Shown piece after piece: positions 31,547 through 62,736 of a stretch of DNA of 64,000 nucleotides (positions are counted from its first letter, which is position 1; each line of letters opens with the position of its first letter). A program made the position numbers and the translations under genes. Source of the stretch: a plasmid; the sequence record NZ_CP145666.1. One strand, 5' to 3'. The notes under the pieces were generated by a model. It was not told where the DNA came from and searched no databases. It worked only from the letters and a program-made list of their open reading frames with translations.

Positions 31547-31669
31547 CATATTGTTCCCCCTGCATTTCTCATCGCTAAATTCTTTCTTGAAATATCGTCA
31601 GATTCCCTGTTTGTCACCCACCAGCCTCATGTTGTTATTGACCTAACTGCCATTCAATGGGAAGCAACA

Positions 31670-32233
31670 ATGTTTAATTTAATCGCGAAGGCTAAAGAAG
31701 CAGGTTATCAATTCTGGATCAGTGCCTCCAAGGTACTGACAGTTACTACCGGAACCGAGATGGGGCTGACGATTATTAAAACTGTAACTGATATTAACCC
31801 TTGCTTGCTGGTGGCGGAGTTAATGAACCTTGGGATCACGTTATCCCCAGATAATAATTATTTCTGCTGGTTGGATAGCGAAGGTGTCCTTTGGGCCGTT
31901 GACCGCCACCATCTCTATCGAGGAAATACAGGGGAGCATGGGGTAAACTGGGATGTCGTCTATCATCACGGCATGGTAATTAATACCCCTGAGCAGGCAT
32001 CCATCCTTTTCAAAATTCCCCACATTGGGCGCTTTACTGCCACTGTAATGTATAGCGCTGGCTATACACCCGACTGGGCTCTTCCAGCCTTTGTTGATTT
32101 TTCTGGTGAACCGGATCATGAAACAATACTGTCGTGGTTATCCGAGGTAGGCATTCGTAATGCAGGAATGCATCTCGAAGATATTGAGTTTCTTTCTGTT
32201 GAAGAAAATCCCGACGCTTATATCTCTCTTTAA
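31670..32233 (+). CDS. hypothetical protein (187 aa)
   Basis: Promoter-module variant TTTGTCACC about 60 nt upstream. Confidence 0.5.
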   Translation: MFNLIAKAKEAGYQFWISASKVLTVTTGTEMGLTIIKTVTDINPCLLVAELMNLGITLSPDNNYFCWLDSEGVLWAVDRHHLYRGNTGEHGVNWDVVYHHGMVINTPEQASILFKIPHIGRFTATVMYSAGYTPDWALPAFVDFSGEPDHETILSWLSEVGIRNAGMHLEDIEFLSVEENPDAYISL

Positions 32234-32245
32234 TGAGGTCTCTGT

Positions 32246-32662
32246 ATGTCAAACGTTAAACCTTATTCCTGGGTAGTTCGCTTCGATGTTGCTCCTCAGT
32301 GGGTAGCTGACGGCTTTATCATGACAGATACCACAGCTCTCGAAATGCTATCTGATGTTATCAACTATGCAAACGATCACGAACTTGCCGCATTGGTTAT
32401 TTCAGCACCCGATGCAGAAAGAATTTCCGAGGAGCAAGGCTATTTGGCTTCTAACAATGCGGAGCTAATGCGTCAGGTGCTAATCGGCTCACCGCAGGCA
32501 TATGCTAAAGCATCTGTGGCAAATACCCTGCTAAAGGCTATAACCGCACTTGAGCAAACGCAGGATAATAAGCAGGTCGTTAAAGAACTGCATTCCAGCC
32601 TCGCTTTACTGACGGGCAATAAGCCTATTTCGGACATTATCTGGTTTCCAACCCCAGAATAA
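32246..32662 (+). CDS. hypothetical protein (138 aa)
   Basis: GAGGT SD. Confidence 0.5.
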   Translation: MSNVKPYSWVVRFDVAPQWVADGFIMTDTTALEMLSDVINYANDHELAALVISAPDAERISEEQGYLASNNAELMRQVLIGSPQAYAKASVANTLLKAITALEQTQDNKQVVKELHSSLALLTGNKPISDIIWFPTPE

Positions 32663-32713
32663 TTCTTTCATAAAGAGCTTAAATCTTTAGCTCATTTATT
32701 TATGGATTTTCTA

Positions 32714-32764
32714 TTCGTCAGCCACCCAGCGTGTGTTTAACTGAAGTTAGTAAACAAAACGAAA
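32714..32764 (+). promoter_or_regulatory. accessory promoter module (TTCGTCAGCC ... GTAAACAAAACGAAA)
   Basis: Member of the repeated promoter family. Confidence 0.45.
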
Positions 32765-32783
32765 AACATACGCGGGGTGATTT

Positions 32784-33035
32784 ATGAATACTGCAATTCA
32801 TCAAGTACGAAATAACGTTCGTCGCACTACATCTGCACGTCCTGTTTGTTATCCAGTTCGCCCGCAGACAGAGAAAGAACTTTTTTCTGTAGGCCGCAGC
32901 CTCTGGTATCGCTACACCACTTCATTTGGCCCGTGCCGTGAAGTTCACCATCATCATGTGCAGCAGCTTGCACACCTGGTGGGTAAATCTGTTGGCTATG
33001 TTGAACATGCCATTAATCATTACCTCACGCATTGA
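32784..33035 (+). CDS. hypothetical small protein (83 aa)
   Basis: GCGGGGTGA SD; His-rich. Confidence 0.4.
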   Translation: MNTAIHQVRNNVRRTTSARPVCYPVRPQTEKELFSVGRSLWYRYTTSFGPCREVHHHHVQQLAHLVGKSVGYVEHAINHYLTH

Positions 33036-33050
33036 ACGAGGCGGCTTAAT

Positions 33051-33323
33051 ATGTCTACTCAAATCTATTGTGCGGTGCTTCGCCATTTCATGATGATGGC
33101 TGCATCCTCCCAGCACTCATTGATTGTGCTGAAGCAATTATATAACGCAGAGATTTCATCGAAAGCTCACCTGGCCGGTCTCTCCGTGTCCGAAGCTGAA
33201 GCGCTCCTGGCTCTACCATCCACCAGCTGGCGCAAACGCGATGATGTAATTCATGAGCTGAACATTCGCCTTAAGCAACTCACTAGCGTAGCCACACCGC
33301 CAGCTCAACAAGTCGCAAACTGA
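33051..33323 (+). CDS. hypothetical small protein (90 aa)
   Basis: Open frame in an operon-like series. Confidence 0.4.
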   Translation: MSTQIYCAVLRHFMMMAASSQHSLIVLKQLYNAEISSKAHLAGLSVSEAEALLALPSTSWRKRDDVIHELNIRLKQLTSVATPPAQQVAN

Positions 33324-33336
33324 AGGAGTCTATAAC

Positions 33337-33720
33337 ATGCTGCCATTTCTCATTTTGCTGTTCTGCTCATCGCCTGAGACGGCGCGAATGATCCTAATCT
33401 ACGCTACCGATGAATCTGCGGCCCGCCTCCAGGCGCTTGAAGATTTCGCACGTCTGAATGATTCGGGTTTTGCTGCTTCCGCCCAAACCCCATATGAGTG
33501 GGAGAATCCTCACGGTGACCAGCTCTTTATTGAGTCGGTATACCCGGTTCCATCCGGCGATTTATCTGCTATCCGCCGTATGCTCGGGGATGACGATGCC
33601 CCATATACCGACAAGCACCTTATTGCCGGTTTACCGGAGGACAGCCGACGTATCCAGATGATTGAACCGAATGCCGGTACTCTTTCTCGTATTGCTCAGG
33701 CAGAGCAGTACCTTCAGTAG
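33337..33720 (+). CDS. hypothetical protein (127 aa)
   Basis: AAGGAG SD. Confidence 0.45.
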   Translation: MLPFLILLFCSSPETARMILIYATDESAARLQALEDFARLNDSGFAASAQTPYEWENPHGDQLFIESVYPVPSGDLSAIRRMLGDDDAPYTDKHLIAGLPEDSRRIQMIEPNAGTLSRIAQAEQYLQ

Positions 33721-33782
33721 ACTTGTGTTCCGACCGCCCACCAGCAGGTGGGCTTCGGGCTAATTTCCTGTACGAGGTATGT

Positions 33783-34487
33783 ATGCAAGGTACACCACGC
33801 TGGTGGCAGAACGGTCGTCGGGTGCAGGCCGTTCTCGCAGAGAATCAGACCGCAGATGTAAGGCTCAATATCGGCCCAGAAAATGACTTCTGGTTTACTG
33901 ATGATGGTAATAATCCTGTTGCTGTGCTTAGGGTTATCGGCCCGGTCTGTCCACTGGATCCGCTAAAATTCACCTCCAGTATCACTGATGTCCTTCCTGA
34001 AGATGTCCATAGCTATAAAAAAGCCCTTCAGGAACACCAGATGATAAACCGGCCTGTCTCGTTCTATCTTGCACTTGCCGATGCCTGGTTGCTTGTTAAC
34101 GAACAGCAGCCGGTTTACCAGTTCCGCATCCGAAACCAGTACAACGGCATGACTACTGAATGGAATTCCGTTGCCCGGGACAAAGTCATTGAAGTGATTA
34201 AGATGCAGCCGGAAACCGCTGAATTCCGGGTTCTCGTCCCATCGGCTCCTGAGCCTGCTGCGAATGCCCGGCAGTTGATCTCAGAAATTGAAGGTCTGCG
34301 TGAAGCTATTGGGAAACTCTACCCGGCAAATACTGATGTACGTCGTATTGCCAGAAACAGCGGCTGGATGCATGTATACGACGACACCAATGCCAAAATG
34401 AACTTTGCAGACAATGCCAGAAATACCCCTTATCTCGATGCCTTTGTGACTCAACTGCATCTCTTCCTCACAGATGATCGAGAGTAG
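33783..34487 (+). CDS. hypothetical protein (234 aa)
   Basis: GAGGT SD before ATG 33783 (MQGTPRWW); the track ORF starts upstream at 33723. Confidence 0.45.
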   Translation: MQGTPRWWQNGRRVQAVLAENQTADVRLNIGPENDFWFTDDGNNPVAVLRVIGPVCPLDPLKFTSSITDVLPEDVHSYKKALQEHQMINRPVSFYLALADAWLLVNEQQPVYQFRIRNQYNGMTTEWNSVARDKVIEVIKMQPETAEFRVLVPSAPEPAANARQLISEIEGLREAIGKLYPANTDVRRIARNSGWMHVYDDTNAKMNFADNARNTPYLDAFVTQLHLFLTDDRE

Positions 34488-34655
34488 ATGTAAAACCTCC
34501 CTGAATCTTTCTGCTCTAACCAGCGCTGTCATATAGCATTTTTTTGACGGCGCTGCCGGTTGCGCTTTTATCAAACATGGTAAATACATTGTTTCATGCT
34601 GTCTGGCTCCCGGGCGCGGAGTTATCGTTGATGGAACCAAGTTGAGATATTCGAA

Positions 34656-35828
34656 ATGAAAAGACCAACGGCACATAAAAATGACCGTCTGCCGGTGCGA
34701 AGATCTAACCCTACAACGCCTCAAGCAAGAGAGCGCGTTATTGCCGGGCTGGTGGCCTCAGCTACATCTGACTTCGTCTACCTCGTTCAGTGGCTGAAAT
34801 CAGGAAAGCAGAACGGTGACCCTCTACAGCTATCCAGATGGGATAGCCTGAGAAATGCAATAAGTCACCTTGAGACGCTTGATGCTGGTGTACAACCTGA
34901 CTGGCGCAAAGTCCTCACCCTGGTGTCGCGGGAAATTCATACCAGCCATAATGTCCAGGCGGTTGTTACTCCTCCGTCTAAAATCGCCGGTGGTATACTC
35001 AGCAACCTTAACGACATCAGCCAGAAGATAGCGACCGGGCTTGCTTCCCCTGACATGCTCGGCAGGCTCGATTATATGCTTCAGTTGACCGCAGGCCTGG
35101 CAGGTGGTGATGATCTGGCGCAAAGCATCCGTAAGGTTTCAGACAGTGCAGAAAAAGCCCTACGTGGTTATGACAAGCCGCAGGCAAAGGCCAAAACGCC
35201 TAAACCGGCCCCACCAGCTCCTGCATTCCGGGATGATCAGACGTTCAGGCAAGAGTGTGCGCCACTGATTGGGGTTGATGACCTCTTTGTTCTGGCTAAT
35301 TGCCTTATTGCGATGTCCGCCCGCCTGGGCCGTTCTCCTGTCAGCCTAGCGAAACGCGCAGCGGGTTTAAAAGGTGTGATTAAACCCGATATGCTGGCTG
35401 ACCTGCTGGAGCTCTTACAGCAGGACGTGGATCTGACCGCCCTGGCCCCGCCACCCAGGGTTAAAGACGATAATAGCCGCAGTGATGGAGGTAAGCTCGT
35501 CGGTTTAACCGGGGTCGTCGAAGGTGGCGCGTCAATCGGTGCTGAAGCGCAGCGTATCATCACCGCAGAACTGAAGAAGCACTCGCCGCTCACTTCGGCG
35601 CAGCGCGTATCTTTCGATACCGCCCGTGCGGGTCTGGCGCTGGAGAGCGATACATTCCGGGTTATTGAAGAGATCAGACGTATTGCAGCATCACTCAACT
35701 GGAGACCGCTGGCTGTCGCGGCCCATGCCGCGCATAAATCGCCTGGTATCCGCCCGGAGATTGCCGGGGATGTGATCACGTTGCTGGCGCAGGATGAGGC
35801 CTTAACCACCAGCAAGCCTAGCCGTTAA
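34656..35828 (+). CDS. hypothetical protein (390 aa), high-GC segment, Ala/Pro-rich
   Basis: Long ORF in a locally GC-rich segment (about 60 percent). The antisense ORF 35237-35815 is treated as a GC artefact. Confidence 0.45.
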   Translation: MKRPTAHKNDRLPVRRSNPTTPQARERVIAGLVASATSDFVYLVQWLKSGKQNGDPLQLSRWDSLRNAISHLETLDAGVQPDWRKVLTLVSREIHTSHNVQAVVTPPSKIAGGILSNLNDISQKIATGLASPDMLGRLDYMLQLTAGLAGGDDLAQSIRKVSDSAEKALRGYDKPQAKAKTPKPAPPAPAFRDDQTFRQECAPLIGVDDLFVLANCLIAMSARLGRSPVSLAKRAAGLKGVIKPDMLADLLELLQQDVDLTALAPPPRVKDDNSRSDGGKLVGLTGVVEGGASIGAEAQRIITAELKKHSPLTSAQRVSFDTARAGLALESDTFRVIEEIRRIAASLNWRPLAVAAHAAHKSPGIRPEIAGDVITLLAQDEALTTSKPSR

Positions 35829-36460
35829 GTACCTGCCGCGCTGACTACAGCTTACCTCGCGATATTGCACCAGCAGCTCAGAAATAATACCGGTATAAAC
35901 GTCCGCGTTTTGCCGGTATTTTAATTCGCCCTATTTTTAGAATTAGCGATAATAGCGTTGCTTATTACGTATTTTTACACTCAGAAACCTTCGTCACATG
36001 AATAGGGTATGGTTCACTGAATAGACAAAGACGTTAAATCTGGTCAGCTACAGAAAGGAGGATTTATGTAAATGCTCTCGTTACGTTCAAACTCTTAAAA
36101 AACTGCCGCGCCTGCCTATATAAGCCAGGCTGTAGACCTGAAGTCTACAAATTTAGCGTTACTGACAATTCACAATCCAGTGAACCGGCCCACACTAAGG
36201 AGGTTATATGCGAACGCGTAACTTTAAATCTGAGTCTATGTAATCTGATCAGCTGGCGCTGCCGAGAATGGCGGACTCCGCTACCCCGGTGATAGACCGG
36301 GGTAGCAGGAAGAAAGAGTAACGATTTACCGGTTTTAAAACCAAATTTTCGTCAAATGGGATACAAGCGCCCAAGGCCGGTTCCCGTCTGACAGACCGAA
36401 GTTGTGATGTGTGCATCGCCCCCCTGGAAGTTGTTTTATTGAATTGCTGTGTGTAGTTTT

Positions 36461-36488
36461 GCGGGGATAATACCCCGCTTTTTTTTTG
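36461..36488 (+). terminator. intrinsic terminator ending a noncoding/mini-ORF region
   Basis: GCGGGGATAATACCCCGC plus T9. Confidence 0.65.
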
Positions 36489-36614
36489 CTTATTCTTCTT
36501 CGTCACCCCACCTTCCTGTGCCATCATACGTATAGAAAATAACTTTTCACTTCTGACCCTTTTTCAGTTGAAGTCTTATGATTTGATATTCCGCTAATAC
36601 ACACACATTAAGGA

Positions 36615-36956
36615 ATGAAAATGAGCAACGATATTCATAACAAAATTGCTGATGCTTTAGCTTCTGTTGGTTTAAAACTTTCCGATGGATATACCCGGGC
36701 CGCACTCTTACTGAAGATGAAAGGTTCAGTTAGTCTCAATTTTGCTGTTGATGGCAAACCTGTCACTGTCACTCTCCATATGACTGAATCGGGTGATGTT
36801 ACTGCTACCACTGATTATGACGATTCAACCGCTACTGCCGCAGCAGCAGCCGCAGCCACTACAACGCCAACACAAGAGTCGGTGGAAAAACCAGCAGAAG
36901 AGTCGGTGGAAGAGCCAGAAAAAAGTAATACACGAAAAGGCCCAAGGCCTAAGTAA
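36615..36956 (+). CDS. hypothetical protein (113 aa) with Ala/Thr-rich linker
   Basis: CTTCGTCACC promoter module at 36498; AAGGA SD. Confidence 0.4.
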   Translation: MKMSNDIHNKIADALASVGLKLSDGYTRAALLLKMKGSVSLNFAVDGKPVTVTLHMTESGDVTATTDYDDSTATAAAAAAATTTPTQESVEKPAEESVEEPEKSNTRKGPRPK

Positions 36957-37040
36957 TAACTGCGCTGGAACTACATGTTGGCATAATTATAAATATCAAA
37001 ACTGGCGGGGTTAAATCCCCGCTTTTTTATGCCCGATTTC

Positions 37041-37087
37041 CTTCGTCACCTGAATACCCCGTGAGACTATAAGTAAACAAAACGAAC
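37041..37087 (+). promoter_or_regulatory. accessory promoter module CTTCGTCACC ... GTAAACAAAACGAAC
   Basis: Core at 37041-37050, box at 37073-37087; ATG at 37104. Confidence 0.5.
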
Positions 37088-37103
37088 AACACGGGGCAAC
37101 GCC

Positions 37104-37697
37104 ATGACCACCAGCAAAGAGAAAAATGTATTCTACGTTCACTACTATGAATCCGACTCCAGTGGTGGCGAACTGCCACTGATGCGCATTGAAGCGGAGA
37201 ACGAAGATGAAGCCAACCTGATCTGTCTTCGCAACCTCGCGGATGTTTATGACGTTGATCATGACGACATCAGTCTTGAAGACGGCTTCGAAGTGAACGG
37301 CAATAGCGTTTATCTGCAAGGTATCTACCCGGCGACCTCAGAGCAGGCACTGGTAGTTGATGCGGTATTTAATATGACTTCTGTAGAACCAGTCGCTGAG
37401 GCTGTGACCGGCACGGCGGAATCCGCCTGCGGTATCAGCCTGGTCTCTGATAAGGTCTGGCTGGAAAGCTGGTTCGACCTCGAAGACAAATTTGCTGATC
37501 AGATGGCCCACGTCGCTGAAGATGACAAGTCTGATACACGCTTCTTGCTCTACCGTGACCAGGTCATCGATGTGCGTGAATGCGAGACATCTTCTGTCCC
37601 AGGCTGGGATCTCCAGTTCGGCTTGAGCGGCGGTACGCAGATGCTATTCATTCGCCTTTCTGATGATGGCGATCACGTTGCACTGGGTCTCGAATAA
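37104..37697 (+). CDS. acidic hypothetical protein (197 aa)
   Basis: Strongly Asp/Glu-rich; preceded by the promoter module. Confidence 0.5.
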   Translation: MTTSKEKNVFYVHYYESDSSGGELPLMRIEAENEDEANLICLRNLADVYDVDHDDISLEDGFEVNGNSVYLQGIYPATSEQALVVDAVFNMTSVEPVAEAVTGTAESACGISLVSDKVWLESWFDLEDKFADQMAHVAEDDKSDTRFLLYRDQVIDVRECETSSVPGWDLQFGLSGGTQMLFIRLSDDGDHVALGLE

Positions 37698-37789
37698 CTG
37701 CTGCCTGCGCCCGGGCTTGTTTGCCCGGGTTGCTCCCCTCCCCTGAATCAAACCGAGTATCATGACATCATTCTGAGGAGTACCAGACG

Positions 37790-38056: not shown

Positions 38057-38091
38057 TCCGCAAATTTTGTCCTTTTTTTACCCGGCTCTGA

Positions 38092-38138
38092 CTTCGTCAC
38101 CCGGGTAACCAGTGATTTAATAAGTAAACAAAACGAAC
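38092..38138 (+). promoter_or_regulatory. accessory promoter module CTTCGTCACC ... GTAAACAAAACGAAC
   Basis: ATG at 38165. Confidence 0.5.
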
Positions 38139-38164
38139 ATACCAATAATCACTGGGGATGCACC

Positions 38165-39203: not shown

Positions 39204-39485
39204 ATGAAGATGAAAATAAGCCAGCTGGAAGTCGGGATGAGTGTCTGGTCGGTTAGCCGGGTAAATATGGGCAACACCACACTTAAAACAGTTGTCGTCC
39301 ACCCGGTCGTGATTGTCGAAGTCCATGATAACCACGTCATAGCCACCTGGAATGGTAACGCCCCGCGTCGTTTCGGTGAGTCCGTCGTTAAGGGCTGGAA
39401 GAAAGAAAAGCCGTTGCTGATCCGTGAAGGTTTCGGGCAAATGCGCCTGGCTACCAGGGAAGAGAAAGCGCTGGCTGGTAAGTAA
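39204..39485 (+). CDS. hypothetical small protein (93 aa)
   Basis: GGAAATGAAG region; open frame. Confidence 0.4.
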   Translation: MKMKISQLEVGMSVWSVSRVNMGNTTLKTVVVHPVVIVEVHDNHVIATWNGNAPRRFGESVVKGWKKEKPLLIREGFGQMRLATREEKALAGK

Positions 39486-39599
39486 CCCCCTTCGTGACCT
39501 GTATGACCCGTGGTGTAATGGCTCCGACAACCTGGCAGTTTTCGCAACGCAACACTCTGCCGCAAATCACCCTCCACGGGGCCAGACAGGGAATACACG

Positions 39600-39957: not shown

Positions 39958-39967
39958 CTTCGTCACC
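39958..39967 (+). promoter_or_regulatory. accessory promoter module core CTTCGTCACC upstream of the DinG operon
   Basis: 60 nt before ATG 40027. Confidence 0.45.
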
Positions 39968-40026
39968 TGCCGGGCCCGTGTTGTACTGGTATCAGTACAA
40001 CATAAAACGAGATCACGGGGCGCATC

Positions 40027-40332
40027 ATGCAGACACTGACCGACGTATTCAGCGATAAGGCGAATAAAGCCTTTCATTCGATTTTCGCCGATTTCCTGCC
40101 CACCAGCGCGGATGGGGTAATCACCTTTACGGTTCGCGGCTATGGCGGAAAAACTGCCTGCATGACCGTCCCCTCTGGAACCCCGGTTTTCGTCTTTGGC
40201 ACTGAAGAGCTCGCCGACTTCCATCGCTCCGCCGTGGCGGGTGAATTCTACATCGTTGATCACGGTGGTTTCCGCACCCTGAATCAACAGGTAGAACGTG
40301 GCCGCGTCCCAGTCATCTACGACATCCTCTGA
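40027..40332 (+). CDS. hypothetical protein (101 aa), first gene of DinG operon
   Basis: ACGGGG SD. The antisense 230-aa ORF 39931-40623 is rejected. Confidence 0.45.
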   Translation: MQTLTDVFSDKANKAFHSIFADFLPTSADGVITFTVRGYGGKTACMTVPSGTPVFVFGTEELADFHRSAVAGEFYIVDHGGFRTLNQQVERGRVPVIYDIL

Positions 40333-44697: not shown

Positions 44698-44827
44698 AGG
44701 CTTCGCTATATGTGAATTATCGAAGGGGTGTCCATTTCATACCCGATTACTTCGTCAATTGTCGACCGGTGGGATAATAGGATTAAAACAGTTTTTAGCT
44801 TCACGATATTATGGAGAAACCGCCGTC

Positions 44828-49653: not shown

Positions 49654-49805
49654 CCCCGTCTGCGCCCGTTTCATCTGAATTCGGGCCGTCACAATCTTTC
49701 TGATTTTATTGAGAAAACAGCCTCTTTTTGTCCCCTTTTTTCCTTCGTCAGCAGACTCAGTCGTTCGATAATAAAAACAGACCAACACAACCACTGAGGT
49801 GTTTC

Positions 49806-51600: not shown

Positions 51601-51868
51601 CCGGTTTAAGGCTGAATACAAATTATTAATGAGGATGCGTTATGAATGAAATCCCACAATACGTCTATGACCTGATCGGTATTTGCCTCTTTGTTGGAAT
51701 GTGGGTCGGAGGCGTTCTGCTTATTTGGTTTATTTTCTCTAATGGAGAGAGCGACGAATAGCCAGGCAACTGGCGCAACTGATGTTGCAGGATGGCCCCA
51801 ACAATATCTTACCTGCTTACGCTCTGATTACCCGCGCAACGCTTCGTCAGAAGCGGAAAGCTGGGATA

Positions 51869-52189
51869 ATGAATATATCCCGTATACACCAGGCTATCCC
51901 AATGAAAATTACTGTGTTTACTGCCCCTGATTGTCCGAAATGTCGCATGACGCTTACCCGCTTTTCTCTGGCTGGGGTGGACGTGAATGAGATCCCGCTG
52001 GTGGACAACGCAGATCTCGTTCGCCTGACACAAAATACCGGTGCGCCGCTGGTGGTGGTGGTCAACGATTCGGGCCGTGTGACGGGTTGGGGTGGGTTCC
52101 GGCCAGATCTTATTGCGACAACTGCCAATGGCTGGAGTGTCGGGTCACTCGATATCCCCCCGTCGCTGGTTAATCACGTCCTTCACTGA
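51869..52189 (+). CDS. NrdH/glutaredoxin-like redoxin (start 51869 or 51903)
   Basis: KITVFTAPDCPKCR thioredoxin-fold CxxC. Confidence 0.5.
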   Translation: MNISRIHQAIPMKITVFTAPDCPKCRMTLTRFSLAGVDVNEIPLVDNADLVRLTQNTGAPLVVVVNDSGRVTGWGGFRPDLIATTANGWSVGSLDIPPSLVNHVLH

Positions 52190-53709: not shown

Positions 53710-53946
53710 TGTCCTGGTTCCTTCTGCTGATATTCGGTATCCGTCTGCCGGGCCACACGATTCTGCATGTAATGCCCTTCATATCACCATTGTACCGGAT
53801 ACCTGCAATTTGCCCCGTAACTACCGGTGCTGATGATAAAAAATATCTTTATTTTGCGAACGATATACACCAGTCCGTCCTGATTTCGTCAGCTGAATTG
53901 TGCCGGGTAAGCTGGTTGCCATGTGAGTGACCTAATGGAGAACACC

Positions 53947-54931: not shown

Positions 54932-54982
54932 CTTCGTCACCTGCGGGGAGCGTGGTTAACTGGTTATGTAAACAAAACGAAC
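54932..54982 (+). promoter_or_regulatory. accessory promoter module CTTCGTCACC ... GTAAACAAAACGAAC
   Basis: ATG at 55009. Confidence 0.5.
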
Positions 54983-55879: not shown

Positions 55880-55946
55880 TGACTGACTGGTGGCGCTCAG
55901 TGAGGAGCGTCACCCGGCATCACGGAGGGAGTTGCAAGAGTTCTGA

Positions 55947-56186: not shown

Positions 56187-56220
56187 CTCAGTTCGTCAAT
56201 GCCGGGGAGTTGCCTGTGTG

Positions 56221-56679: not shown

Positions 56680-57122
56680 GAGTATACCCCGTGCTCAATA
56701 CGCGTAATCAGGCGCATCACTTCAAGCGCACCTGTCTCAGAAGAAACAAGCTCTGCCGGTGATTTCCAGCTCAGACCACGGTTCGCTTCGTTCAGCCATT
56801 TGTGCGCCGCTTCTTTGTCACCTTCAAACAGCTCTACAGCGCGTTCAATTACGCGGATAATGCGCACCAGACGTTCGCTCTGATCGGCAGTGAAACGGTC
56901 TTTGATGCTACGATTAAACGTCGTATTAGGTATACCCGACATTTTGCGCAGCTCAGACGGCGTGATGTTAGCCCATTCAGAAATGTGCTTAGCTACTGTG
57001 CCATCGAGACCGTGATTGATTTTATCCATCAGCGCGATACCGTCATTATCCAGCCCAGCAACCTGCCATAAGCAGTGCTGATTCGTTTTGGTAACGTCTG
57101 GAGAAAAAACTTTCATCGTCAT
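56676..57122 (-). CDS. Xre/MbcA-like antitoxin partner of RES toxin (148 aa)
   Basis: Overlaps the RES start (ATGA). C-terminal SPAELVSSETGALEVMRLITRIEHGVY is a DUF2384-like pattern. GGGAGGG SD before ATG 57122. Confidence 0.6.
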   Translation of the reverse strand: MTMKVFSPDVTKTNQHCLWQVAGLDNDGIALMDKINHGLDGTVAKHISEWANITPSELRKMSGIPNTTFNRSIKDRFTADQSERLVRIIRVIERAVELFEGDKEAAHKWLNEANRGLSWKSPAELVSSETGALEVMRLITRIEHGVYS

Positions 57123-57205
57123 AACTAGCCCTCCCATTTGGTAATTCAATTATACCATATGGAACACTAACGGCAATCTTTTAACCATCAGACAACCTCA
57201 GCGCC

Positions 57206-57215
57206 CTTCGTCACC
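57206..57215 (+). promoter_or_regulatory. accessory promoter module core CTTCGTCACC
   Basis: 56 nt before ATG 57271. Confidence 0.45.
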
Positions 57216-57270
57216 AGCCCCACCTGCCAGATAATAGGTCAATAACGACAAAACTATGACAGGGGGCATC

Positions 57271-57588
57271 ATGCCGAATCTCTTACGTTATGACCAACTG
57301 GACTCCTCACGTCAGCCAGCAGCGCGGGCATCAGCCGCTAGTGGCGAATTATGGTGTGCCCGCAACAACGTAAAAAAGCAGGCGGCAGCGTCAAAGGCCG
57401 CAATTCACCAGGCAATCAATGATCAGCACCGCATTACCCGGCTGCGAAACACCTTTTCGCTCGCGAAGGATATGCGTGAAAAGCCGGTCGTCTGGATTGA
57501 AAAGCGCATCCTCGAAAATCTGTGCATGTTCAATGAGCAGGGCGATATGTACCTGTTCACGCAGCAGAACTTTGTCAGCAAACTCTGA
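57271..57588 (+). CDS. hypothetical protein (105 aa)
   Basis: AGGGGG SD 4 nt before ATG 57271. Confidence 0.4.
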   Translation: MPNLLRYDQLDSSRQPAARASAASGELWCARNNVKKQAAASKAAIHQAINDQHRITRLRNTFSLAKDMREKPVVWIEKRILENLCMFNEQGDMYLFTQQNFVSKL

Positions 57589-57629
57589 ACCTCCGGCCCG
57601 GCTCGTCGGGCCATTAAAAGGAAACCGAT

Positions 57630-58472
57630 ATGACAGACTTCATTGATAAACTGGCAGCGAATGGTGTGGCCTTTACCCTTCAGGACGGACGAATCATCGT
57701 TGAAGGCGATCTTCGTGTCGGGTTTACGCTTGAGCCAGAAGATCCGGCAATTCCCTGCGACTATATTCCCGCGAATCTGACCGTGACGAACACCCTGACC
57801 ATTCTGTCGGGCATTCATAGCATCCCTGCCGGGCTGGTGGCCCGCAATCTGTTTATCAGCTACTCTGAGCTGGAATCTCTCCCTGACAACCTGACCATTA
57901 CCGGTACGCTCATGGCGAATTCTTCACGTCTTAAGTATCTGCCGGAAAATCTGACGGTGGGCCGCGTTCTGGACATCATGTGTACTGATATCGCCTATCT
58001 GCCGGATACGCTGAAAGTAGCTGGCAGTATGATGCTGTCAAACACCCGTATTACCACTTTGCCGGATAACCTGCATCTTGAAGAAAATCTGGCCCTCGAA
58101 GCCATGCCGTTGCAAGCGTTGCCAAAAAACCTGAAAGTGGGCCACAGCCTGTATCTGGATGCTGTGGCTCTGAAGCGGATCCCTGAGTGTATATCGTGCC
58201 CCGTGATTAACCTGGTTAACCCTGGTAATTTTGAAAATGTCGCGTCAGTCACCGGTATCGGCGGAAAGCCTAACCGCCATGTCTATGCGCTACGTACAGC
58301 GCTTGGCGTTCGCGTATGCATGTACGATTTGTCTGTAGACCCGGAAATATTTGGTCTGCTGGTACGTGGCATCTATGATGAACCCACGGCTGAACTACTT
58401 GATAAGGCCGCACAACAATGTATTCAGCGTCTGGAGGATATGTATGCTTCTGAAAACGCAGTTCGGCACTGA
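57630..58472 (+). CDS. leucine-rich-repeat-like protein with five 20-aa LPxNLxVxGxLxL repeats (280 aa)
   Basis: Repeats LPDNLTITGTLMANSSRLKY, LPENLTVGRVLDIMCTDIAY, LPDTLKVAGSMMLSNTRITT, LPDNLHLEENLALEAMPLQA and LPKNLKVGHSLYLDAVALKR read directly. Confidence 0.5.
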   Translation: MTDFIDKLAANGVAFTLQDGRIIVEGDLRVGFTLEPEDPAIPCDYIPANLTVTNTLTILSGIHSIPAGLVARNLFISYSELESLPDNLTITGTLMANSSRLKYLPENLTVGRVLDIMCTDIAYLPDTLKVAGSMMLSNTRITTLPDNLHLEENLALEAMPLQALPKNLKVGHSLYLDAVALKRIPECISCPVINLVNPGNFENVASVTGIGGKPNRHVYALRTALGVRVCMYDLSVDPEIFGLLVRGIYDEPTAELLDKAAQQCIQRLEDMYASENAVRH

Positions 58473-58482
58473 CTCGGGTATG

Positions 58483-58722
58483 ATTTATACCCGGAAGGTG
58501 TATCTGCATTACACCGACACTGACGGGCATTCACGCAGCAAGCTGATAAAAGGTTACTACTACCCGGGCGAAGTCCCGGTTGAGTCGTTTTCAGAGCGGG
58601 CACTTGCTCCTGGTATGCGCCAGCTGTTGAGTTGCCGCTGCGGCGCAATAAACTGGGTCGCAACTGGTGGTATCAACGAATACCAATGTGACTGCTGCGC
58701 AAAGGAAATAACCGTTTACTGA
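58483..58722 (+). CDS. small Zn-finger-like protein (79 aa), paralog of 39600-39872
   Basis: Shared CRCGAINW...EYQCDCC pattern; start 11 nt after the stop of the upstream gene. Confidence 0.4.
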   Translation: MYTRKVYLHYTDTDGHSRSKLIKGYYYPGEVPVESFSERALAPGMRQLLSCRCGAINWVATGGINEYQCDCCAKEITVY

Positions 58723-58781
58723 CGGTCTGCACGGGGATACCGTTCGACCGGCATACCCATGACAATAAGAGCAGGTGCTAA

Positions 58782-59225
58782 ATGACAAAAGAAGAATCAC
58801 AATTTTATGCTGGTGCAATCTGGGCCGCATCGACCATTTACCGGATGCATTCTGACTCGGTGGTAGCGAAAGATTTTCTCCGTGAAATTAACGATCTGGA
58901 TGTGGCAGCAAAATGTGGTGCTGAGTACGACGTTCTCCCATTACGCCTGTTTGTTTTGCGCGATTTACCATTGGGCCACGATGCGGATTATGAAGCCATC
59001 AGCTTCGGGCCGGTAGACCGTCACGGCAATATCATCTGCGATCACTCTCAGACTTCGGTCACCGATATCTCCGGCCAGCGAGCGTATGGGGTTTATGCCC
59101 GCCGTGCGGGTGAGTCGAATCTGACGCTCATCGACAATCTTGATGATGAAGAAGAAGCCGAACCACTGGCGAAGGTGCTGGCTGAACAGCTCCAGCAAAT
59201 CAAAGAAGGTCGCTACGATATTTAA
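58782..59225 (+). CDS. hypothetical acidic protein (147 aa)
   Basis: Open frame; Asp/Glu-rich. Confidence 0.45.
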   Translation: MTKEESQFYAGAIWAASTIYRMHSDSVVAKDFLREINDLDVAAKCGAEYDVLPLRLFVLRDLPLGHDADYEAISFGPVDRHGNIICDHSQTSVTDISGQRAYGVYARRAGESNLTLIDNLDDEEEAEPLAKVLAEQLQQIKEGRYDI

Positions 59226-59258
59226 GCGTTAGACCACGTACTGCTGGTGGCAATACAC

Positions 59259-59283
59259 TGGCGATTAAGGGGGTTAAGTGACT
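59259..59283 (-). repeat. isolated inverted copy of the 56-bp repeat core (CTGGCGATTAAGGGGGTTAAGTGAC)
   Basis: Reverse complement of GTCACTTAACCCCCTTAATCGCCAG from the 63.2-kb array. Confidence 0.6.
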
Positions 59284-59437
59284 TAAATGATCCACTGACC
59301 TGTCTGTGTAAAGCCTGTTTATCCCAAAGCCGTCTGGTTCACCAGGCGGTTTTTTTATGCCCGGAATAGCAAGCACAACACAAAACGAAACCGATATTAT
59401 CTTTCTGAAAATACAGGGCTTTTTATGCCCTGGTTTT

Positions 59438-59447
59438 CTTCGTCACC
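59438..59447 (+). promoter_or_regulatory. accessory promoter module core CTTCGTCACC
   Basis: 64 nt before ATG 59511. Confidence 0.45.
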
Positions 59448-59510
59448 TGAGTCACTCACCAGATACTGGATACAGAAGCCACAACATGTAACCCGTTATC
59501 AGGAGCGACC

Positions 59511-59676
59511 CATGAAAGCACAAGCTGTTCGTAATCACTCTTTTGGCTCACTGAAGCTCAGCGCAAGCAATGCGGCAGCAGCCGCGCTGGCGCACCCGGT
59601 AACCCATTTCTTCATGCTGTTCGCCATCGTGATGTACCTGGTCTATGGCGGTGTAGTACTCGGCATTAAGCCGTAG
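59511..59676 (+). CDS. small membrane protein (54 aa), tentative
   Basis: GGAG SD; C-terminal TM helix. Confidence 0.3.
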
Positions 59677-59740
59677 CATTCCCTGTGGCCGGTCGCCCAA
59701 CCGGCTTTGCCTCCAACCCTTCTGGAGGTAGTTGTTAACT

Positions 59741-59766
59741 TCCCCGGTAAACCGGGGATTTTTTTA
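59741..59766 (+). terminator. intrinsic terminator
   Basis: TCCCCGGTAAACCGGGGA plus T7. Confidence 0.65.
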
Positions 59767-59861
59767 CCCGTAGTTCCAGCGTTCGCCACTGGAGCTAAAA
59801 CCCACCAGAGCGAATTCCGTAACATAAGCGCTTCTTCTACGTCCGATCAGTACCTTACCCT

Positions 59862-60287
59862 ATGAGCAACCCGTCACACTCTGCTAGCCTTCCTCCCGGA
59901 ATGAACGACACTCTGATGTCCCTATATATCGAACCGGATATGCCTGGTATCGATGATCTCGTTATAACAATTATTCGGCTTCGGCGTGAGGGCTGGACAG
60001 CATCTGAACTGACTTTCCGTATACTTTCGTCAGTTGCATATCAGGTGATTCCTCCAGAGGCGTTTACCGACCCTAAGCATCACCTCCTGAAAGAGTATGT
60101 CAGTTTGTCCCGTGAGTTCGGCCTAGTAAGCGGGGCAAGACATAATGCTCACCTCCGTGGTGTCATTCGCAGAGGGATAATGTCGGGAATAGATAGAGCA
60201 GAGGTAATACGCCGCGTTCTTTTCTCCCCGCACTATTCAGAACATGAGGAAGATAACCAATCTGATTCGTTCCCTCGTTCGTCGTAA
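59862..60287 (+). CDS. hypothetical protein (141 aa), overlaps the next ORF in another frame
   Basis: No clear SD; 44-nt overlap with the HNH ORF frame. Confidence 0.3.
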   Translation: MSNPSHSASLPPGMNDTLMSLYIEPDMPGIDDLVITIIRLRREGWTASELTFRILSSVAYQVIPPEAFTDPKHHLLKEYVSLSREFGLVSGARHNAHLRGVIRRGIMSGIDRAEVIRRVLFSPHYSEHEEDNQSDSFPRSS

Positions 60288-60318
60288 CAACCGGGTGGCA
60301 TTAACGCTTTTTCCCCGA

Positions 60319-61086
60319 ATGTTCCGGTACAAAGCCTTTGGCGTGGTTGAAACAGGATCTGGTTATCCGCGACGGCCTGAACATCAGGAATCCAAAGTTT
60401 GTCTACTGGCAGGATATCTCAGAGTCCAGGAAGAAATTCGTGCTTCTCAGGCCCGTCTGGCTTTACTAAATACTGAAATCGAAAAGGAGAATGCTCAGGA
60501 GTACGCACGTAACAAAATTCCGGCATCACGGTTGGCTCACTTCAGGCTCTGGTTCACTCGCCGATTTGGTAATGACACATCCCGTTTGATTGAGTCCGTG
60601 GACACCTACTGCGAGGAGCAGAATCCAGTAATGGATGAGCAACCGGCTGTATTGCCATTACCACGCGGTCACCTCCCCCATGCAGATATCCGTATGCGCT
60701 CCCCGAGCTTCCGCCGAGAGGTTAGCGTTCGCGATGTGCATGTCCAGTCTCAGTTCCGTGAGTTGGTGGATAAGAATTTCGGAAGCCTGTGCGCGGTATC
60801 GGGCAAACACCTCAACGGTGTGCTGGAGGCAGCACATATTGAACCAACATCCGTAGCAGGCTGCTATAACGCCAGTAACGGCATTTTGCTATCACCAACA
60901 TTCCACAGGCTGTTTGACACAAACATGATGGGTATTGATCCTGATACACTACAGATTCACTTCGCCAGCGGTATAGAGTTCCCTGAGTATGAAGGGGTCT
61001 GTATAAAACCGTTGTTCTACAATCTGGATAAAAACAGGCTCGGGGCAAGATGGCTTGAATTTAAAGTGAAATCACCTGCGGAGTAA
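60319..61086 (+). CDS. HNH endonuclease-domain protein (start uncertain, 60244 or 60319)
   Basis: C-terminal CAVSGKHLNGVLEAAHIEP...NGILLSPTFHRLFD matches the HNH_2-type pattern. Confidence 0.55.
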   Translation: MFRYKAFGVVETGSGYPRRPEHQESKVCLLAGYLRVQEEIRASQARLALLNTEIEKENAQEYARNKIPASRLAHFRLWFTRRFGNDTSRLIESVDTYCEEQNPVMDEQPAVLPLPRGHLPHADIRMRSPSFRREVSVRDVHVQSQFRELVDKNFGSLCAVSGKHLNGVLEAAHIEPTSVAGCYNASNGILLSPTFHRLFDTNMMGIDPDTLQIHFASGIEFPEYEGVCIKPLFYNLDKNRLGARWLEFKVKSPAE

Positions 61087-61492
61087 GCCCTCTCCCCTCT
61101 TCCATCTCCCTGCCCTATCCAATCTATTTATTGGAAAGGCATAGCAGCATGGAGATAAGTAGCACACAAGTAACTCACCGATAATTCACATAAAAACCAT
61201 ATCAAAACAAATCAATCAGTTTATCGCATTTCCTAGCGCACTTTTAATTCACATTTTATGGACTTTTAATCCAATCCTCTCCTGTTCACTTTGAATTTAA
61301 GTGATATCAGTGAATGATAAGGTACGAATAATTCACTAAATAACAACTATGTAAATTCAACAGCATAAAAACCAGAGCGCTATCTTCGGACTGGTTCCAG
61401 TAATTGATGGTTTGAGTCCGGCCCGCATGTCATACTGATTTATATCTTTCGTGTAGCCCTGCGGTAGGCACGATTTCATCCCAATACATCCA

Positions 61493-61759
61493 GTGGCATG
61501 TGACTATATGATCGACCAAGCAGAGTTAATGAAGAGTGTTTTAGCGGTTCTGCAAGCCAGAAACGTGTCATTATCAGAGAGCCCTACGCGAATTCTGATG
61601 ATGCTTCCAACACGGTTACGCGTGAATGTCACTGTAATCGATGCTCAAAATGAACCGTTAACCGCGACACTGATGCTGGATCAGGAAGGTCAAGTGACCT
61701 GTAAGCTGGCAACAGACCCCGCTGATACCGTCGTTGATATCAGTCGATATAGAGTATGA
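61493..61759 (+). CDS. hypothetical small protein (88 aa)
   Basis: Open frame only. Confidence 0.3.
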   Translation: MACDYMIDQAELMKSVLAVLQARNVSLSESPTRILMMLPTRLRVNVTVIDAQNEPLTATLMLDQEGQVTCKLATDPADTVVDISRYRV

Positions 61760-62153
61760 TTTAAATCTTCGCGTTCCAGCCAGCCGTTCCCAGCTTCGTT
61801 GTAGAATATTGCAATAAGCCAATCCCCAGCCAGCCCTGTAATGTAACCGAAGAAAATCGTGCGCAATGCGCACGTAAAAATGTCTGCCCGCCACGCGGGC
61901 AATCGCCGTCCAAAAGCTTCGCTCTCAAGCGAAGCAGGCACGACATGTAAATTCGAATAGAGCCCTCACGGGGCGATTAGGCGAATTCGCGGCCCGCTAG
62001 GGCAAAGTCTCAAAGCGTATGGGGGTTAACACCCCCAAAACGCTGTGGAGACTGTTGTGGCTTTTCGGAACTACGATCCCGAAGTACTGACTAAGGGTTG
62101 CGGCTGCCACCAGCCCGGCTATCAGGCGACCCAACAATTATTTCTCCGTATCA
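61760..62153 (+). other. 400-bp hairpin-dense noncoding segment
   Basis: Serial GC-rich stem-loops (GTGCGCAATGCGCAC, GCCCGCCACGCGGGC, GCTTCGCTCTCAAGCGAAGC, GGGGGTTAACACCCCC); no credible ORF. Confidence 0.35.
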
Positions 62154-62163
62154 CTTCGTCACC
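62154..62163 (+). promoter_or_regulatory. accessory promoter module core CTTCGTCACC
   Basis: 52 nt before ATG 62215. Confidence 0.45.
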
Positions 62164-62214
62164 TGCTCAAGGTGATTGAAAATAGAATCACAATTAGAAA
62201 GCGGGGAACACACA

Positions 62215-62736
62215 ATGAACACTCAGACAAGAATCAAATTGAAAGGCCTCAAAATCTATACTGGCATGAGCCAGGAAACAGTCTGCTTTAACGCTACTGT
62301 CCTCTTCGACGGGCTGAGCATAGGTACAGCTGATAATGATGGGCATGGTGGCGAAACTCGCGTACTGTTCGAACCAGGAAAAAAAGAGCTGTTCCGCCAG
62401 GCCGAATCATATGCGAAGGGTCTTCTGCCAATCTGCCTTGGCGAACACAATGGCAAGCCATTTCTCATAGACTCAAACCTGATTGAAGTAATCGACCAGC
62501 TTGTCAGTGACGAGGAGCGTAACCGGAAAACTAAATCAAGTTTCAAGAAGGTTTACCGCAAGAAAATCTGCGTCTTACGCGAAGGTAGACTTTGGACAGT
62601 GGGCTACAAAAGCCAGGCTCAATACGCTTCATACATCGCACAAATCAAAAAAGAACATGGCCCTGATATCGTTATCCTGGACGATTTGGAACATGATGAA
62701 GCTTTCGAGCTGTACAGTAAGCACTTATACGCCTGA
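62215..62736 (+). CDS. hypothetical protein (173 aa)
   Basis: GCGGGG SD; the track start is 62176. Confidence 0.45.
   Translation: MNTQTRIKLKGLKIYTGMSQETVCFNATVLFDGLSIGTADNDGHGGETRVLFEPGKKELFRQAESYAKGLLPICLGEHNGKPFLIDSNLIEVIDQLVSDEERNRKTKSSFKKVYRKKICVLREGRLWTVGYKSQAQYASYIAQIKKEHGPDIVILDDLEHDEAFELYSKHLYA

Follow-up and report, generated by a model that had tools for sequence, protein, structure and literature searches.

The window analysed here is a stretch of 64,000 nt from plasmid NZ_CP145666.1. Downstream of mobI it carries a DinG-containing operon, Lar-linked genes and many genes without assigned function, and on its minus strand a lipoprotein gene adjoins traN. The decamer CTTCGTCACC recurs upstream of these genes. 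It occurred eight times in exact form, always on the plus strand, against 0.04 expected from shuffled sequence; with at most one mismatch there were 17 matches against 3.07 expected, a count that no shuffle reached. In total, the window holds 17 decamer sites when close variants are included, a larger set than had been claimed. Together with the 15-nt leader box GTAAACAAAACGAAC, described below, the predicted promoters are as follows; each line gives the element, the spacer and the -10 hexamer, with TG where it precedes the hexamer.

31609-31638, plus strand: predicted promoter of gene 31670; variant GTTTGTCACC, 16 nt, TG and TGTTAT; fully conserved in a relative of about 90% (L003)
32713-32742, plus strand: predicted promoter of gene 32784; ATTCGTCAGC, 16 nt, TG and TTAACT; followed by the leader box at 32750
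35989-36018, plus strand: predicted promoter of a region of about 470 nt with mini-ORFs and no annotated gene; CTTCGTCACA (L003 carries CTTCGTCACC here), 16 nt, TTCACT
36498-36527, plus strand: predicted promoter of gene 36615/36621; CTTCGTCACC, 16 nt, TG and CATCAT; a terminator-like hairpin ends 19 nt upstream
37041-37070, plus strand: predicted promoter of gene 37104; CTTCGTCACC, 16 nt, TG and GACTAT; terminator-like hairpin upstream, leader box at 37073
38092-38121, plus strand: predicted promoter of gene 38165; CTTCGTCACC, 16 nt, TG and TTTAAT; leader box at 38124
39490-39519, plus strand: predicted promoter of gene 39600; CTTCGTGACC, 16 nt, TG and TGTAAT
39958-39987, plus strand: predicted promoter of the DinG-containing operon (first gene 40027); CTTCGTCACC, 16 nt, TG and TGTACT; a 22-bp palindrome (39980-40001) overlaps the -10 hexamer and the predicted start site
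44750-44778, plus strand: predicted promoter of gene 44828, upstream of the Lar gene; CTTCGTCAAT, 15 nt, TG and GATAAT
49743-49772, plus strand: predicted promoter of gene 49806; CTTCGTCAGC, 16 nt, GATAAT
51842-51870, plus strand: predicted promoter of gene 51902; CTTCGTCAGA, 15 nt, TG and GATAAT
53884-53913, plus strand: predicted promoter of gene 53947; TTTCGTCAGC, 16 nt, TAAGCT
54932-54961, plus strand: predicted promoter of gene 55009; CTTCGTCACC, 16 nt, TG and TTAACT; terminator-like hairpin upstream, leader box at 54968
57206-57235, plus strand: predicted promoter of gene 57271; CTTCGTCACC, 16 nt, GATAAT
59438-59467, plus strand: predicted promoter of gene 59512; CTTCGTCACC, 16 nt, GATACT
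62154-62183, plus strand: predicted promoter of gene 62215; CTTCGTCACC, 16 nt, GAAAAT
24591-24620, minus strand: predicted promoter of the lipoprotein gene adjoining traN (start 24553); CTTCGTCACG, 16 nt, TAGTAT; terminator-like hairpin upstream
30041-30055, plus strand: leader-type box GTAAACAAAACGAAA in the gap between mobI and gene 30386; no canonical decamer upstream
32750-32764, plus strand: leader box GTAAACAAAACGAAA, one mismatch, 8 nt past the -10 hexamer
37073-37087, plus strand: leader box GTAAACAAAACGAAC, exact, 2 nt past the -10 hexamer
38124-38138, plus strand: leader box GTAAACAAAACGAAC, exact, 2 nt past the -10 hexamer
54968-54982, plus strand: leader box GTAAACAAAACGAAC, exact, 6 nt past the -10 hexamer

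All 17 sites are intergenic, and each is oriented like its downstream gene. The element or a close variant was present upstream of each of the 13 start codons first proposed, its first base opening every plus-strand promoter line above other than those at 35989, 39490 and 51842. The copies proposed on the minus strand (24620-24611) and at 35989 were also recovered, and the RNA downstream of the latter folds with a z of -3.8. Two sites, 39490 and 51842, had been missed. Among the 16 sites to which a gene could be assigned, 15 have 60-78 nt between the first base of the element and the start codon, and the other, 39490, has 110 nt; for 36498 the distance is 117 nt to the ATG at 36615 originally chosen and 123 nt to the annotated start at 36621. 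The statement that a terminator typically lies upstream was too strong, since a hairpin plus T-run within 75 nt was found at only 4 of 17 sites (36498, 37041, 54932 and 24620), with a T-run alone at three more.

We then pooled 50 sites from two plasmid lineages and examined their geometry. TTCGTCA was nearly invariant. The second element, which had been placed about 18 nt downstream of TCGTCA, is real, and its best register is a hexamer ending in T that begins 16 nt after TCGTCA (15 nt in two window sites). Across the 50 sites, the spacer was 16 nt in 39, 15 nt in 8 and 14 nt in 3, and the hexamer ended in T in 49. TG stood at -15/-14 in 26 sites, and by our own count of the hexamers A at -11 was found in 11 of these 26 compared with 22 of the 24 lacking TG, which is the compensation expected for sigma-70. 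The T at -7, the spacer and the optional TGn agree with a canonical sigma-70 -10 region (spacer 16-18 nt). TCGTCA matches TTGACA at four of six positions, and its non-consensus bases are invariant. A generic sigma-70 scan demanding at least 9 of 12 consensus matches and A at hexamer position 2 did not call the decamer sites, which fits a need for a helper. The predicted architecture is thus sigma-70 extended -10 logic combined with a non-canonical -35.

These features also bear on the earlier suggestion of a distinct sigma factor. Either plasmid-borne and too divergent to annotate or encoded by the host, such a factor would read the decamer together with the -10 region. The two-part asymmetric motif with strict spacing, the G or GG that often follows the last -10 base, and the many plasmid proteins without a recognisable domain would suit such a factor. 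However, the -10 region follows sigma-70 rules, in that TG offsets the lack of A at -11, and the annotation of the 304-kb plasmid contains no sigma-family gene. In our own comparison, the motif also matched none of the alternative-sigma consensus sequences of E. coli. Nor would a sigma factor of the host explain why a third plasmid group, found in the same host genus, has a different code. We regard this reading as highly unlikely.

The complete plasmid, a large resistance plasmid of Citrobacter and Klebsiella, measures 304 kb and carries about 36 such sites. Beyond the region downstream of mobI, they serve ssb, dnaN, a ParB-like gene, a PAPS-reductase gene, a PerC-family operon and the lipoprotein gene. 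No decamer site was found in the resistance and IS modules. Because the class is plasmid-wide and includes such genes, the original label of an establishment or anti-defence island is too narrow. A Pfam search with 20 regulon proteins gave no family above the cut-off, and a PHROGs search with 10 proteins gave one family, with no function assigned, and no candidate reader. The PerC-family protein is the only annotated clade-restricted regulator and is at best a weak candidate for the reader; Pch, its EHEC homologue, binds many AT-rich sites, and PMC4764244 gives no sequence motif for it.

Next, we compared the decamer with the promoters of the transfer genes. A different box, CAAAACGTnnCCATTTTTGA, is common to the traF operon, mobH and the region upstream of mobI, and on the complete plasmid no tra operon has a sense-oriented decamer upstream, whereas an AcaCD-type regulon would have one box upstream of its transfer operons. 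A weight-matrix scan built from published sites found no intergenic match to the IncC AcaCD box upstream of tra or island genes in the window. Because the transfer promoters bear CAAAACGTnnCCATTTTTGA instead, the FlhDC-like pair proposed earlier is an unlikely reader of the decamer. The corresponding explanation, in which the decamer is the box of an FlhDC-like, AcaCD-type master activator that co-induces the island with transfer, draws on an IncA/C-like layout (AcaB, FlhC-like gene, mobI, traFHG, traN) and on the class 2 activator profile of IncA/C AcaCD, which also drives many non-transfer genes (PMC4207636). Against the distribution of the two boxes, we consider it very unlikely indeed.

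The original prediction had also raised an ssDNA-type promoter. Frpo-like sites firing on the entering strand before it is copied might be expected here: the region lies downstream of mobI, which the oriT of IncA/C adjoins (its nick site could not be mapped; PMC5587640), the window genes, small ones among them, are almost all co-oriented, and their anti-defence-like content resembles that of a leading region (PMC11541004). However, the decamer has no reverse-complement partner near any site, 301-nt DNA folds around two of the promoters were unremarkable (z -1.3 and -1.5), and we found no Frpo-like hairpin, that is, no long imperfect hairpin that would rebuild -35 and -10 in single-stranded DNA as in Frpo/ssi. 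Members of the class are also present on the other strand of the plasmid, at a distance of over 100 kb. This explanation is hardly credible.

To assess conservation, we turned to related plasmids. Providencia plasmid p18001477_NDM, which encodes an FlhC-like protein with 66% identity, retains both the element and the -10 region. At the orthologous lipoprotein gene promoter the element reads CTTCGTCAGC; there and at the ParB-like gene the spacers are only 6-7/14 identical by our own count, yet the element is retained, and the PAPS-reductase promoter likewise keeps the element with a different spacer. In both lineages, ssb and dnaN have the element, or a close variant of it, in their promoters, and in Providencia the rdgC promoter has the element. 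K. pneumoniae plasmid p33Kpn22-2 (FlhC-like protein 50% identical) lacks the decamer and has TTCGGCC at the same position and spacing. TTCGGCC ranked first in an unbiased k-mer count of its upstream regions (7 of 34), and most of its roughly 10 sites, all on this one plasmid, lie 16 nt from a hexamer ending in T. Applied to IncA pRA1, the k-mer approach recovered GCCCAAA. The decamer class was absent from pRA1 and from one IncHI2 plasmid. Since the code of the third group differs although the hosts overlap (Klebsiella), the reader is more likely to be plasmid-encoded than host-encoded.

Conservation also speaks to whether a dedicated factor is needed at all. The modules could descend from a single ancestral intergenic cassette whose copies recombination or gene conversion has preserved, with sigma-70 as their only reader. 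Some of them share an upstream T-run followed by ATGCCCGR, the leader box, a GGGG ribosome-binding site and the start-codon context CAYCATG, which suggests common descent of these modules. The spacers between decamer and -10 are unrelated among copies, however, and yet the non-consensus bases of the decamer are invariant; the Providencia promoters keep the element and not the spacer, and the third group has another invariant code at the same position. We find this account decidedly unlikely.

The leader box GTAAACAAAACGAAC gave 6 matches in the window against 0.21 expected. Four copies had been reported, of which those at 37073, 38124 and 54968 are exact and that at 32750 has one mismatch; the related copy at 14124 has two, and a further box at 30041, with one mismatch, had not been listed. 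The box is a conserved element of the predicted leader 5' end. Rfam covariance models run against the whole window gave no family at gathering score.

The strict geometry, the constant orientation, the conservation in diverged plasmids and the lineage variant at the same position all argue for a dedicated promoter class with a specific site overlapping -35. The original interpretation is therefore partly supported: the promoter class is supported, the FlhDC-like reader and the ssDNA-type promoter are not, and a distinct sigma is less likely. We infer that the sites are promoters and that a plasmid-encoded factor, activator or repressor, acts on them. In our preferred reading, to which we give a probability of about 0.5, they form a family-specific sigma-70 promoter class that depends on a putative plasmid-encoded factor at -35.

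If TCGTCA is a true -35 hexamer, an activator site and a repressor operator would be equally compatible with the fixed spacing. TCGTCA is close to TTGACA and several copies combine TG with GATAAT, so that sigma-70 by itself might suffice at some of the promoters. A possible but doubtful alternative is that a global repressor encoded by the plasmid has the decamer as its operator, which overlaps a working non-canonical sigma-70 -35; the genes would then be silent in established cells and expressed in a burst on entry into a repressor-free recipient. The overlap with -35 suits this, as do the many copies with a good -10 hexamer or TG plus GATAAT that could be active unaided, and a gene set resembling establishment genes (Lar, ssb and toxin-antitoxin pairs, with psiA in the third-group plasmid). 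KorA/KorB of IncP-1 are a precedent for global repression by plasmids. To our knowledge, the known global plasmid repressors bind palindromes or repeats, whereas the element is a single asymmetric 10-12-mer without a second half-site. Moreover, most copies would be weak by consensus rules, given their non-canonical -35 and GC-rich 16-nt spacers, and the class would also drive the ParB-like gene and the lipoprotein gene, for example, whose expression is expected in established cells.

A second precedent for repression has a similar layout. According to PMC6289460, which cites Delver and Belogurov 1997, ArdK of IncN acts as a repressor by binding to a 13-nt consensus in CUP elements, repeated conserved elements in promoters of leading-region and maintenance genes under one plasmid regulator. 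In the present plasmid, just a 10-12-nt asymmetric element exactly at -35 and the -10 region are conserved, and no ArdK gene is annotated. The AcaCD (IncA/C) and SetCD (SXT/R391) regulons belong to a related MOBH backbone (PMC4207636, PMC4344509). In IncA/C, the activator has a class 2 profile, with its box immediately ahead of the core promoter, and controls many operons, including genes without known function; the box spans 28 nt, the examples listed have TGCCCAAAnnGGGCA in common, and it serves tra promoters (PMC4207636). In the present plasmid, the tra promoters bear CAAAACGTnnCCATTTTTGA and lack the decamer.

The predicted class also resembles promoters of another mobile element. Phage T4 middle promoters combine a MotA box at about -30 with a sigma-70 -10, often with TGn, so that a factor of the phage reads a short asymmetric element that stands, at fixed spacing, in place of -35. 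The resemblance is in architecture alone, since the sequences differ (TGCTTtA in T4, TTCGTCA here).

In the preferred reading, host sigma-70 RNA polymerase would read the -10 hexamer, often an extended -10 (TGn), and the -35 position (about -36 to -25) would be taken by the invariant asymmetric element (C/A/T)TTCGTCA(C/G)C, usually followed by tG. The plasmid-encoded factor reading it would probably be a -35-proximal (class II-type) activator or a substitute for the sigma region 4 contact. Each promoter would yield an mRNA with a short leader (predicted 5' UTR of about 25-45 nt) and a GGGG-type ribosome-binding site, and a subset of these mRNAs would begin with the A/C-rich leader box. These findings suggest that about three dozen non-transfer genes share a private type of promoter, with a fixed 10-base element standing in for the usual -35 box. 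Such an arrangement would place some 36 non-transfer backbone units under one common control, separate from the FlhDC-like transfer regulon.

The decamer CTTCGTCACC, a 10-base motif at the -35 position of candidate promoters, occurred in eight exact copies in the window, all on the + strand, against 0.04 expected, and 17 matches with at most one mismatch were found against 3.07 expected. We compiled the site list by inspecting every intergenic region and by a two-block search, which gave a total of 17 decamer sites in the window, 16 on the + strand (31609 to 62154) and one on the - strand (24620). All 17 were intergenic and co-oriented with the next gene. They included every site listed in the original prediction and two extra ones at 39490 and 51842. 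The distance of 55-75 nt upstream of the gene given in that prediction was also right, as the element began 60-78 nt ahead of the start codon at 15 of the 16 sites for which a gene was assigned. The upstream terminator described as typical was overstated: a hairpin with a T-run lay within 75 nt in 4 of the 17 sites, and a T-run alone in 3 more.

The promoter anatomy was derived from a multiple alignment and a 50-site profile. The results showed that TTCGTCA was near-invariant, usually with C before it and (C/G)C then tG after it, while the sequence of the spacer between the element and the -10 hexamer was unconserved and often GC-rich. The hexamer followed TCGTCA at 16 nt in 39 of the 50 sites, at 15 nt in 8 and at 14 nt in 3, and its last base was T in 49, typical forms being GATAAT, GATACT, TTAACT, TGTACT and GAAAAT. 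A TG at -15/-14 was present in 26 of the 50 sites. By our own count over the 50-site hexamer list, A at -11 was found in 22 of the 24 sites without TG versus 11 of the 26 with it, a trade-off that is the compensation expected if sigma-70 regions 2.4 and 3.0 read the -10 region. A separate sigma factor reading these promoters is unlikely, given that the -10 logic is that of sigma-70 and that no sigma gene is annotated on the plasmid. TCGTCA itself lay at about -34 to -29 and matched TTGACA at four of six positions, with the non-consensus bases invariant, and a generic sigma-70 consensus scan called none of the decamer sites. The consensus sequences of CRP, PhoB, sigma-32, sigma-28 and sigma-S, taken from general knowledge, did not fit in their conserved bases or spacing. 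A serious rival is a repressor operator placed over a usable -35. In its favour, several copies, carrying TG and GATAAT, could function without a helper, and the genes resemble establishment genes in their content; against it, each site is one asymmetric 10-12-mer, and by consensus rules most copies appear weak.

Predicted leaders were 25-45 nt long, with a GGGG ribosome-binding site and the start context CAYCATG in common. In a subset of decamer promoters a 15-nt leader box, GTAAACAAAACGAAC, began, in its window copies, 2-8 nt downstream of the hexamer, which would place it at or near the predicted 5' end of the mRNA. This box, which had been proposed together with the decamer, was real (6 matches with at most two mismatches against 0.21 expected); it was asymmetric, A/C-rich and predicted to be unstructured, and a related GTAAACAAAACGGATG was found upstream of the traF operon and traK. 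It may act as a DNA operator at +1 or as an RNA element for translation or stability, and an Rfam scan of the whole window, leader boxes included, matched no family. Two individual promoters had further features. At the promoter of the DinG-containing operon, a perfect 22-bp palindrome, GTTGTACTGGTATCAGTACAAC (39980-40001), overlapped the predicted start and the -10 hexamer, and may serve as an additional operator of this operon alone or form a 5' RNA stem-loop. The region 36022-36490, transcribed from the predicted promoter at 35989, had no annotated gene. Within it, strong ribosome-binding sites preceded both an ATG-TAA start-stop pair and an 11-codon mini-ORF. The region folded far better than its shuffles (z -3.8) and ended at a terminator-like hairpin, and it may be a regulatory RNA or leader.

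The window was identical to large MOBH plasmids (~200-450 kb) of Citrobacter, Klebsiella, Enterobacter and relatives, and its annotation gave a backbone layout resembling that of IncA/C plasmids, with the following features.

Backbone genes of the window
Among the backbone genes: AcaB-family regulator, ssb/recT/exo, traFHG and traN
24681-25211: FlhC-family gene (Pfam FlhC, E 4e-14), with a partner gene without recognisable domain
SLT-domain gene, ParM-family gene and mobI (29078-29509), then a long series of small + strand genes, mostly without recognisable function

Other repeated elements were seen in this backbone. Gaps before genes within 1601-11437 carried near-identical translation-start cassettes, e.g. 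TTAATTTAATGAGGTATATCATG, which precede most genes of the ssb/recT/exo/MoxR/VWA block and are unlike the GGGG-type sites of the decamer class. Two homologous upstream regions, 2164-2529 before ssb and 6094-6464 before the gene at 6465, each had a strong consensus-like promoter (TTGACC, 17 nt, TATCAT or TATTAT) and a common CCGTCGAAAAAGGTGTTTT segment. Upstream of parA/parB, a 56-bp unit was repeated in tandem 6.4 times (63166-63526; 92% matches), probably forming the partition site.

We then compared the promoters with those of related plasmids. In a relative about 90% identical, the decamer cores were kept and two substitutions brought the sequence closer to the consensus, ACA becoming ACC at 35989 and ACG becoming ACC at 24620. 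Plasmids of Providencia, Proteus and Moellerella had an FlhC-like protein 66% identical and the same gene order. One of them, the Providencia plasmid p18001477_NDM, carried at least 14 sites of the form CTTCGTCA(G/C)C, 16 nt and a hexamer before co-oriented genes, and its orthologous promoters kept the element and the -10 region. The spacers of the lipoprotein and ParB-like promoters were identical to their Providencia orthologues at only 6-7 of 14 positions by our own count, and the PAPS-reductase promoter in Providencia likewise kept the element with a different spacer. In both lineages the ssb and dnaN promoters had the element itself or a near match to it, the rdgC promoter had the element in Providencia, and the promoter before dinG in p18001477_NDM had the variant CTTTGTCAGC. 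The leader box was conserved in p18001477_NDM as GTAAACAAAACRAAYAACA, 6-25 nt after the hexamer. Among species-representative genomes, element and box were found in Morganella psychrotolerans, a Citrobacter MAG and a probably mis-binned MAG, and about eight further single hits in that scan were close to a rough chance estimate. The decamer class was absent from the IncA plasmid pRA1, where the top upstream k-mer was the AcaCD box GCCCAAA, and the motif was absent from an IncHI2 plasmid with a homologue of the gene at 39210, including upstream of that homologue. Enrichment, fixed geometry, co-orientation and conservation together support the dedicated promoter class that had been predicted.

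The complete plasmid NZ_CP041248.1 (303,830 bp) was assembled and examined. About 36 decamer-type sites were found; the series began shortly past mobI, crossed the partition and replication region and extended into a second backbone block on the opposite strand (about 43-64 kb of NZ_CP041248.1).

Genes served by the decamer class
Second ssb; dnaN; a gene annotated only as DUF4942-domain protein
Operon with a PerC-family regulator; ParB/RepB-like gene; PAPS-reductase-family gene
Lipoprotein gene adjoining traN

No decamer in sense orientation preceded any tra operon of NZ_CP041248.1, and no decamer site was found in its resistance or IS modules. This distribution indicates that the decamer class is the general promoter type of the non-transfer backbone. 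The restriction to one anti-defence island suggested earlier is not supported for a class of about 36 plasmid-wide sites. The class also reaches far past any leading region and onto the other strand. That the sites are single-strand promoters, as had also been suggested, is unlikely: no inverted decamer partner lay near any site, and 301-nt DNA folds around two of the promoters were ordinary. Just downstream of mobI, 31141-31210 and 31473-31542 were two 70-nt elements, 87% identical, that formed strong ssDNA hairpins (z -4.3 and -2.6), with a compensatory A:T to G:C change in the stem and a similar sequence in the third-group plasmid described below; a role as priming (ssi) signal or as RNA element is possible. 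The oriT of IncA/C plasmids is situated directly upstream of mobI, and attempts to map the nick site failed (PMC5587640). The lipoprotein gene by traN (23783-24553) had tblastn hits in about 196 plasmids of Providencia, Citrobacter, Proteus, Klebsiella and relatives. It occupies the position of the surface-exclusion gene sfx in some IncA/C-like plasmids (PMC11493245), and with no IncC-type record among the tblastn matches listed it is a positional analogue only.

The transfer promoters carried a different sequence. The published IncC AcaCD box (PMC4207636) was absent from the window, and a weight matrix of the published sites returned nothing relevant. We found CAAAACGTnnCCATTTTTGA at 14170-14189, ahead of the traF operon, and at 28072-28091, upstream of mobI, and a close variant just before mobH (NZ_CP041248.1, about 190112; 40112-40131 of the excerpt L008). 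The core CCATTTTT was also seen ahead of traN and between the divergently oriented UvrD-like and DUF1294 genes, and the DsbC gene was preceded by a weaker variant, GCCCTTTTCCC. CAAAACGTnnCCATTTTTGA differs from the IncC AcaCD box and is likely the box of the candidate transfer activator, the FlhDC-like pair (24681-25744). It is unrelated to the decamer, so the sequence gives no support to the proposal that this pair fires the decamer genes.

The third plasmid group, beside the window type (Citrobacter/Klebsiella) and the Providencia type, is represented by K. pneumoniae p33Kpn22-2, which had an FlhC-like protein 50% identical and the same gene order. Its psiA gene lies downstream of mobI, which fits a leading region. 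The decamer was absent from its intergenic regions. An unbiased count gave TTCGGCC as the top 7-mer of its upstream regions (7 of 34), with 14 occurrences versus 5.65 expected. About ten sites read (gcta)TTCGGCC, most with a hexamer ending in T 16 nt on and most 58-86 nt ahead of a start codon.

Examples of (gcta)TTCGGCC in the p33Kpn22-2 excerpt L031 (NZ_CP069048.1 132000-174178)
9228
15676
21981
31769

That other bases occupy the same position at the same spacing, in a plasmid sharing the host genus, speaks for a plasmid-encoded reader that would have co-evolved with its sites. A more far-reaching reading, to which we give a probability of roughly 0.3, is a private programme of the MOBH-megaplasmid clade, in which a protein encoded by the plasmid, so far unrecognised, would replace or redirect the reading of the -35 region by sigma-70 through a short DNA code diverged between plasmid lineages (TCGTCA versus TCGGCC). 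About three dozen establishment and maintenance operons would thereby be insulated from host promoter rules and from sister plasmids. Phage T4 MotA/AsiA substitutes for or redirects -35 recognition by sigma-70 in this way.

A protein search gave no DNA-binding candidate for the decamer: Pfam on 30 proteins returned family-level hits only for FlhC, PerC and ParB-type HTH, and PHROGs on 10 proteins one family of unknown function. Local tblastn for proteins common to the three plasmid groups, over small sampled regions, indicated no regulator. The PerC-family protein was confined to the three groups (147 records; 100%, ~39-47% and 38.5% identity), and its gene is located by sequence in a decamer-driven operon. 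Its EHEC homologue Pch binds AT-rich regions, with no motif given (PMC4764244), which makes it a weak lead only.

Among known systems, T4 middle promoters are nearest in promoter architecture on general knowledge, the AcaCD and SetCD regulons are nearest in ancestry, and the CUP/ArdK regulon of IncN plasmids (PMC6289460) is the nearest analogue in function. The decamer class falls outside all of these, since it lacks their defining sequences as tested here. No description of the decamer motif or regulon was found in the literature searched, a literal search for the decamer returned unrelated primer sequences only, and a search on this plasmid family gave nothing relevant.

We rate the decamer class as a plasmid-wide regulon marked by a promoter-embedded motif, separate from the FlhDC-like transfer regulon and using an unusual -35 code that is lineage-specific. 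No function can be recognised for most genes of this region, and one common promoter element provides a single experimental handle on about 36 transcription units, usable as pull-down or one-hybrid bait, reporter and mutational target. Plasmids of 200-450 kb of this family occur commonly in Citrobacter, Klebsiella and Enterobacter from hospitals, wastewater and the environment, and the related p18001477_NDM is by name an NDM carrier. These findings suggest a regulator so far unnamed by anyone. Should it act positively and be lineage-specific, it would represent a novel mode of backbone control in a conjugative plasmid, and establishment might be blocked by targeting it.
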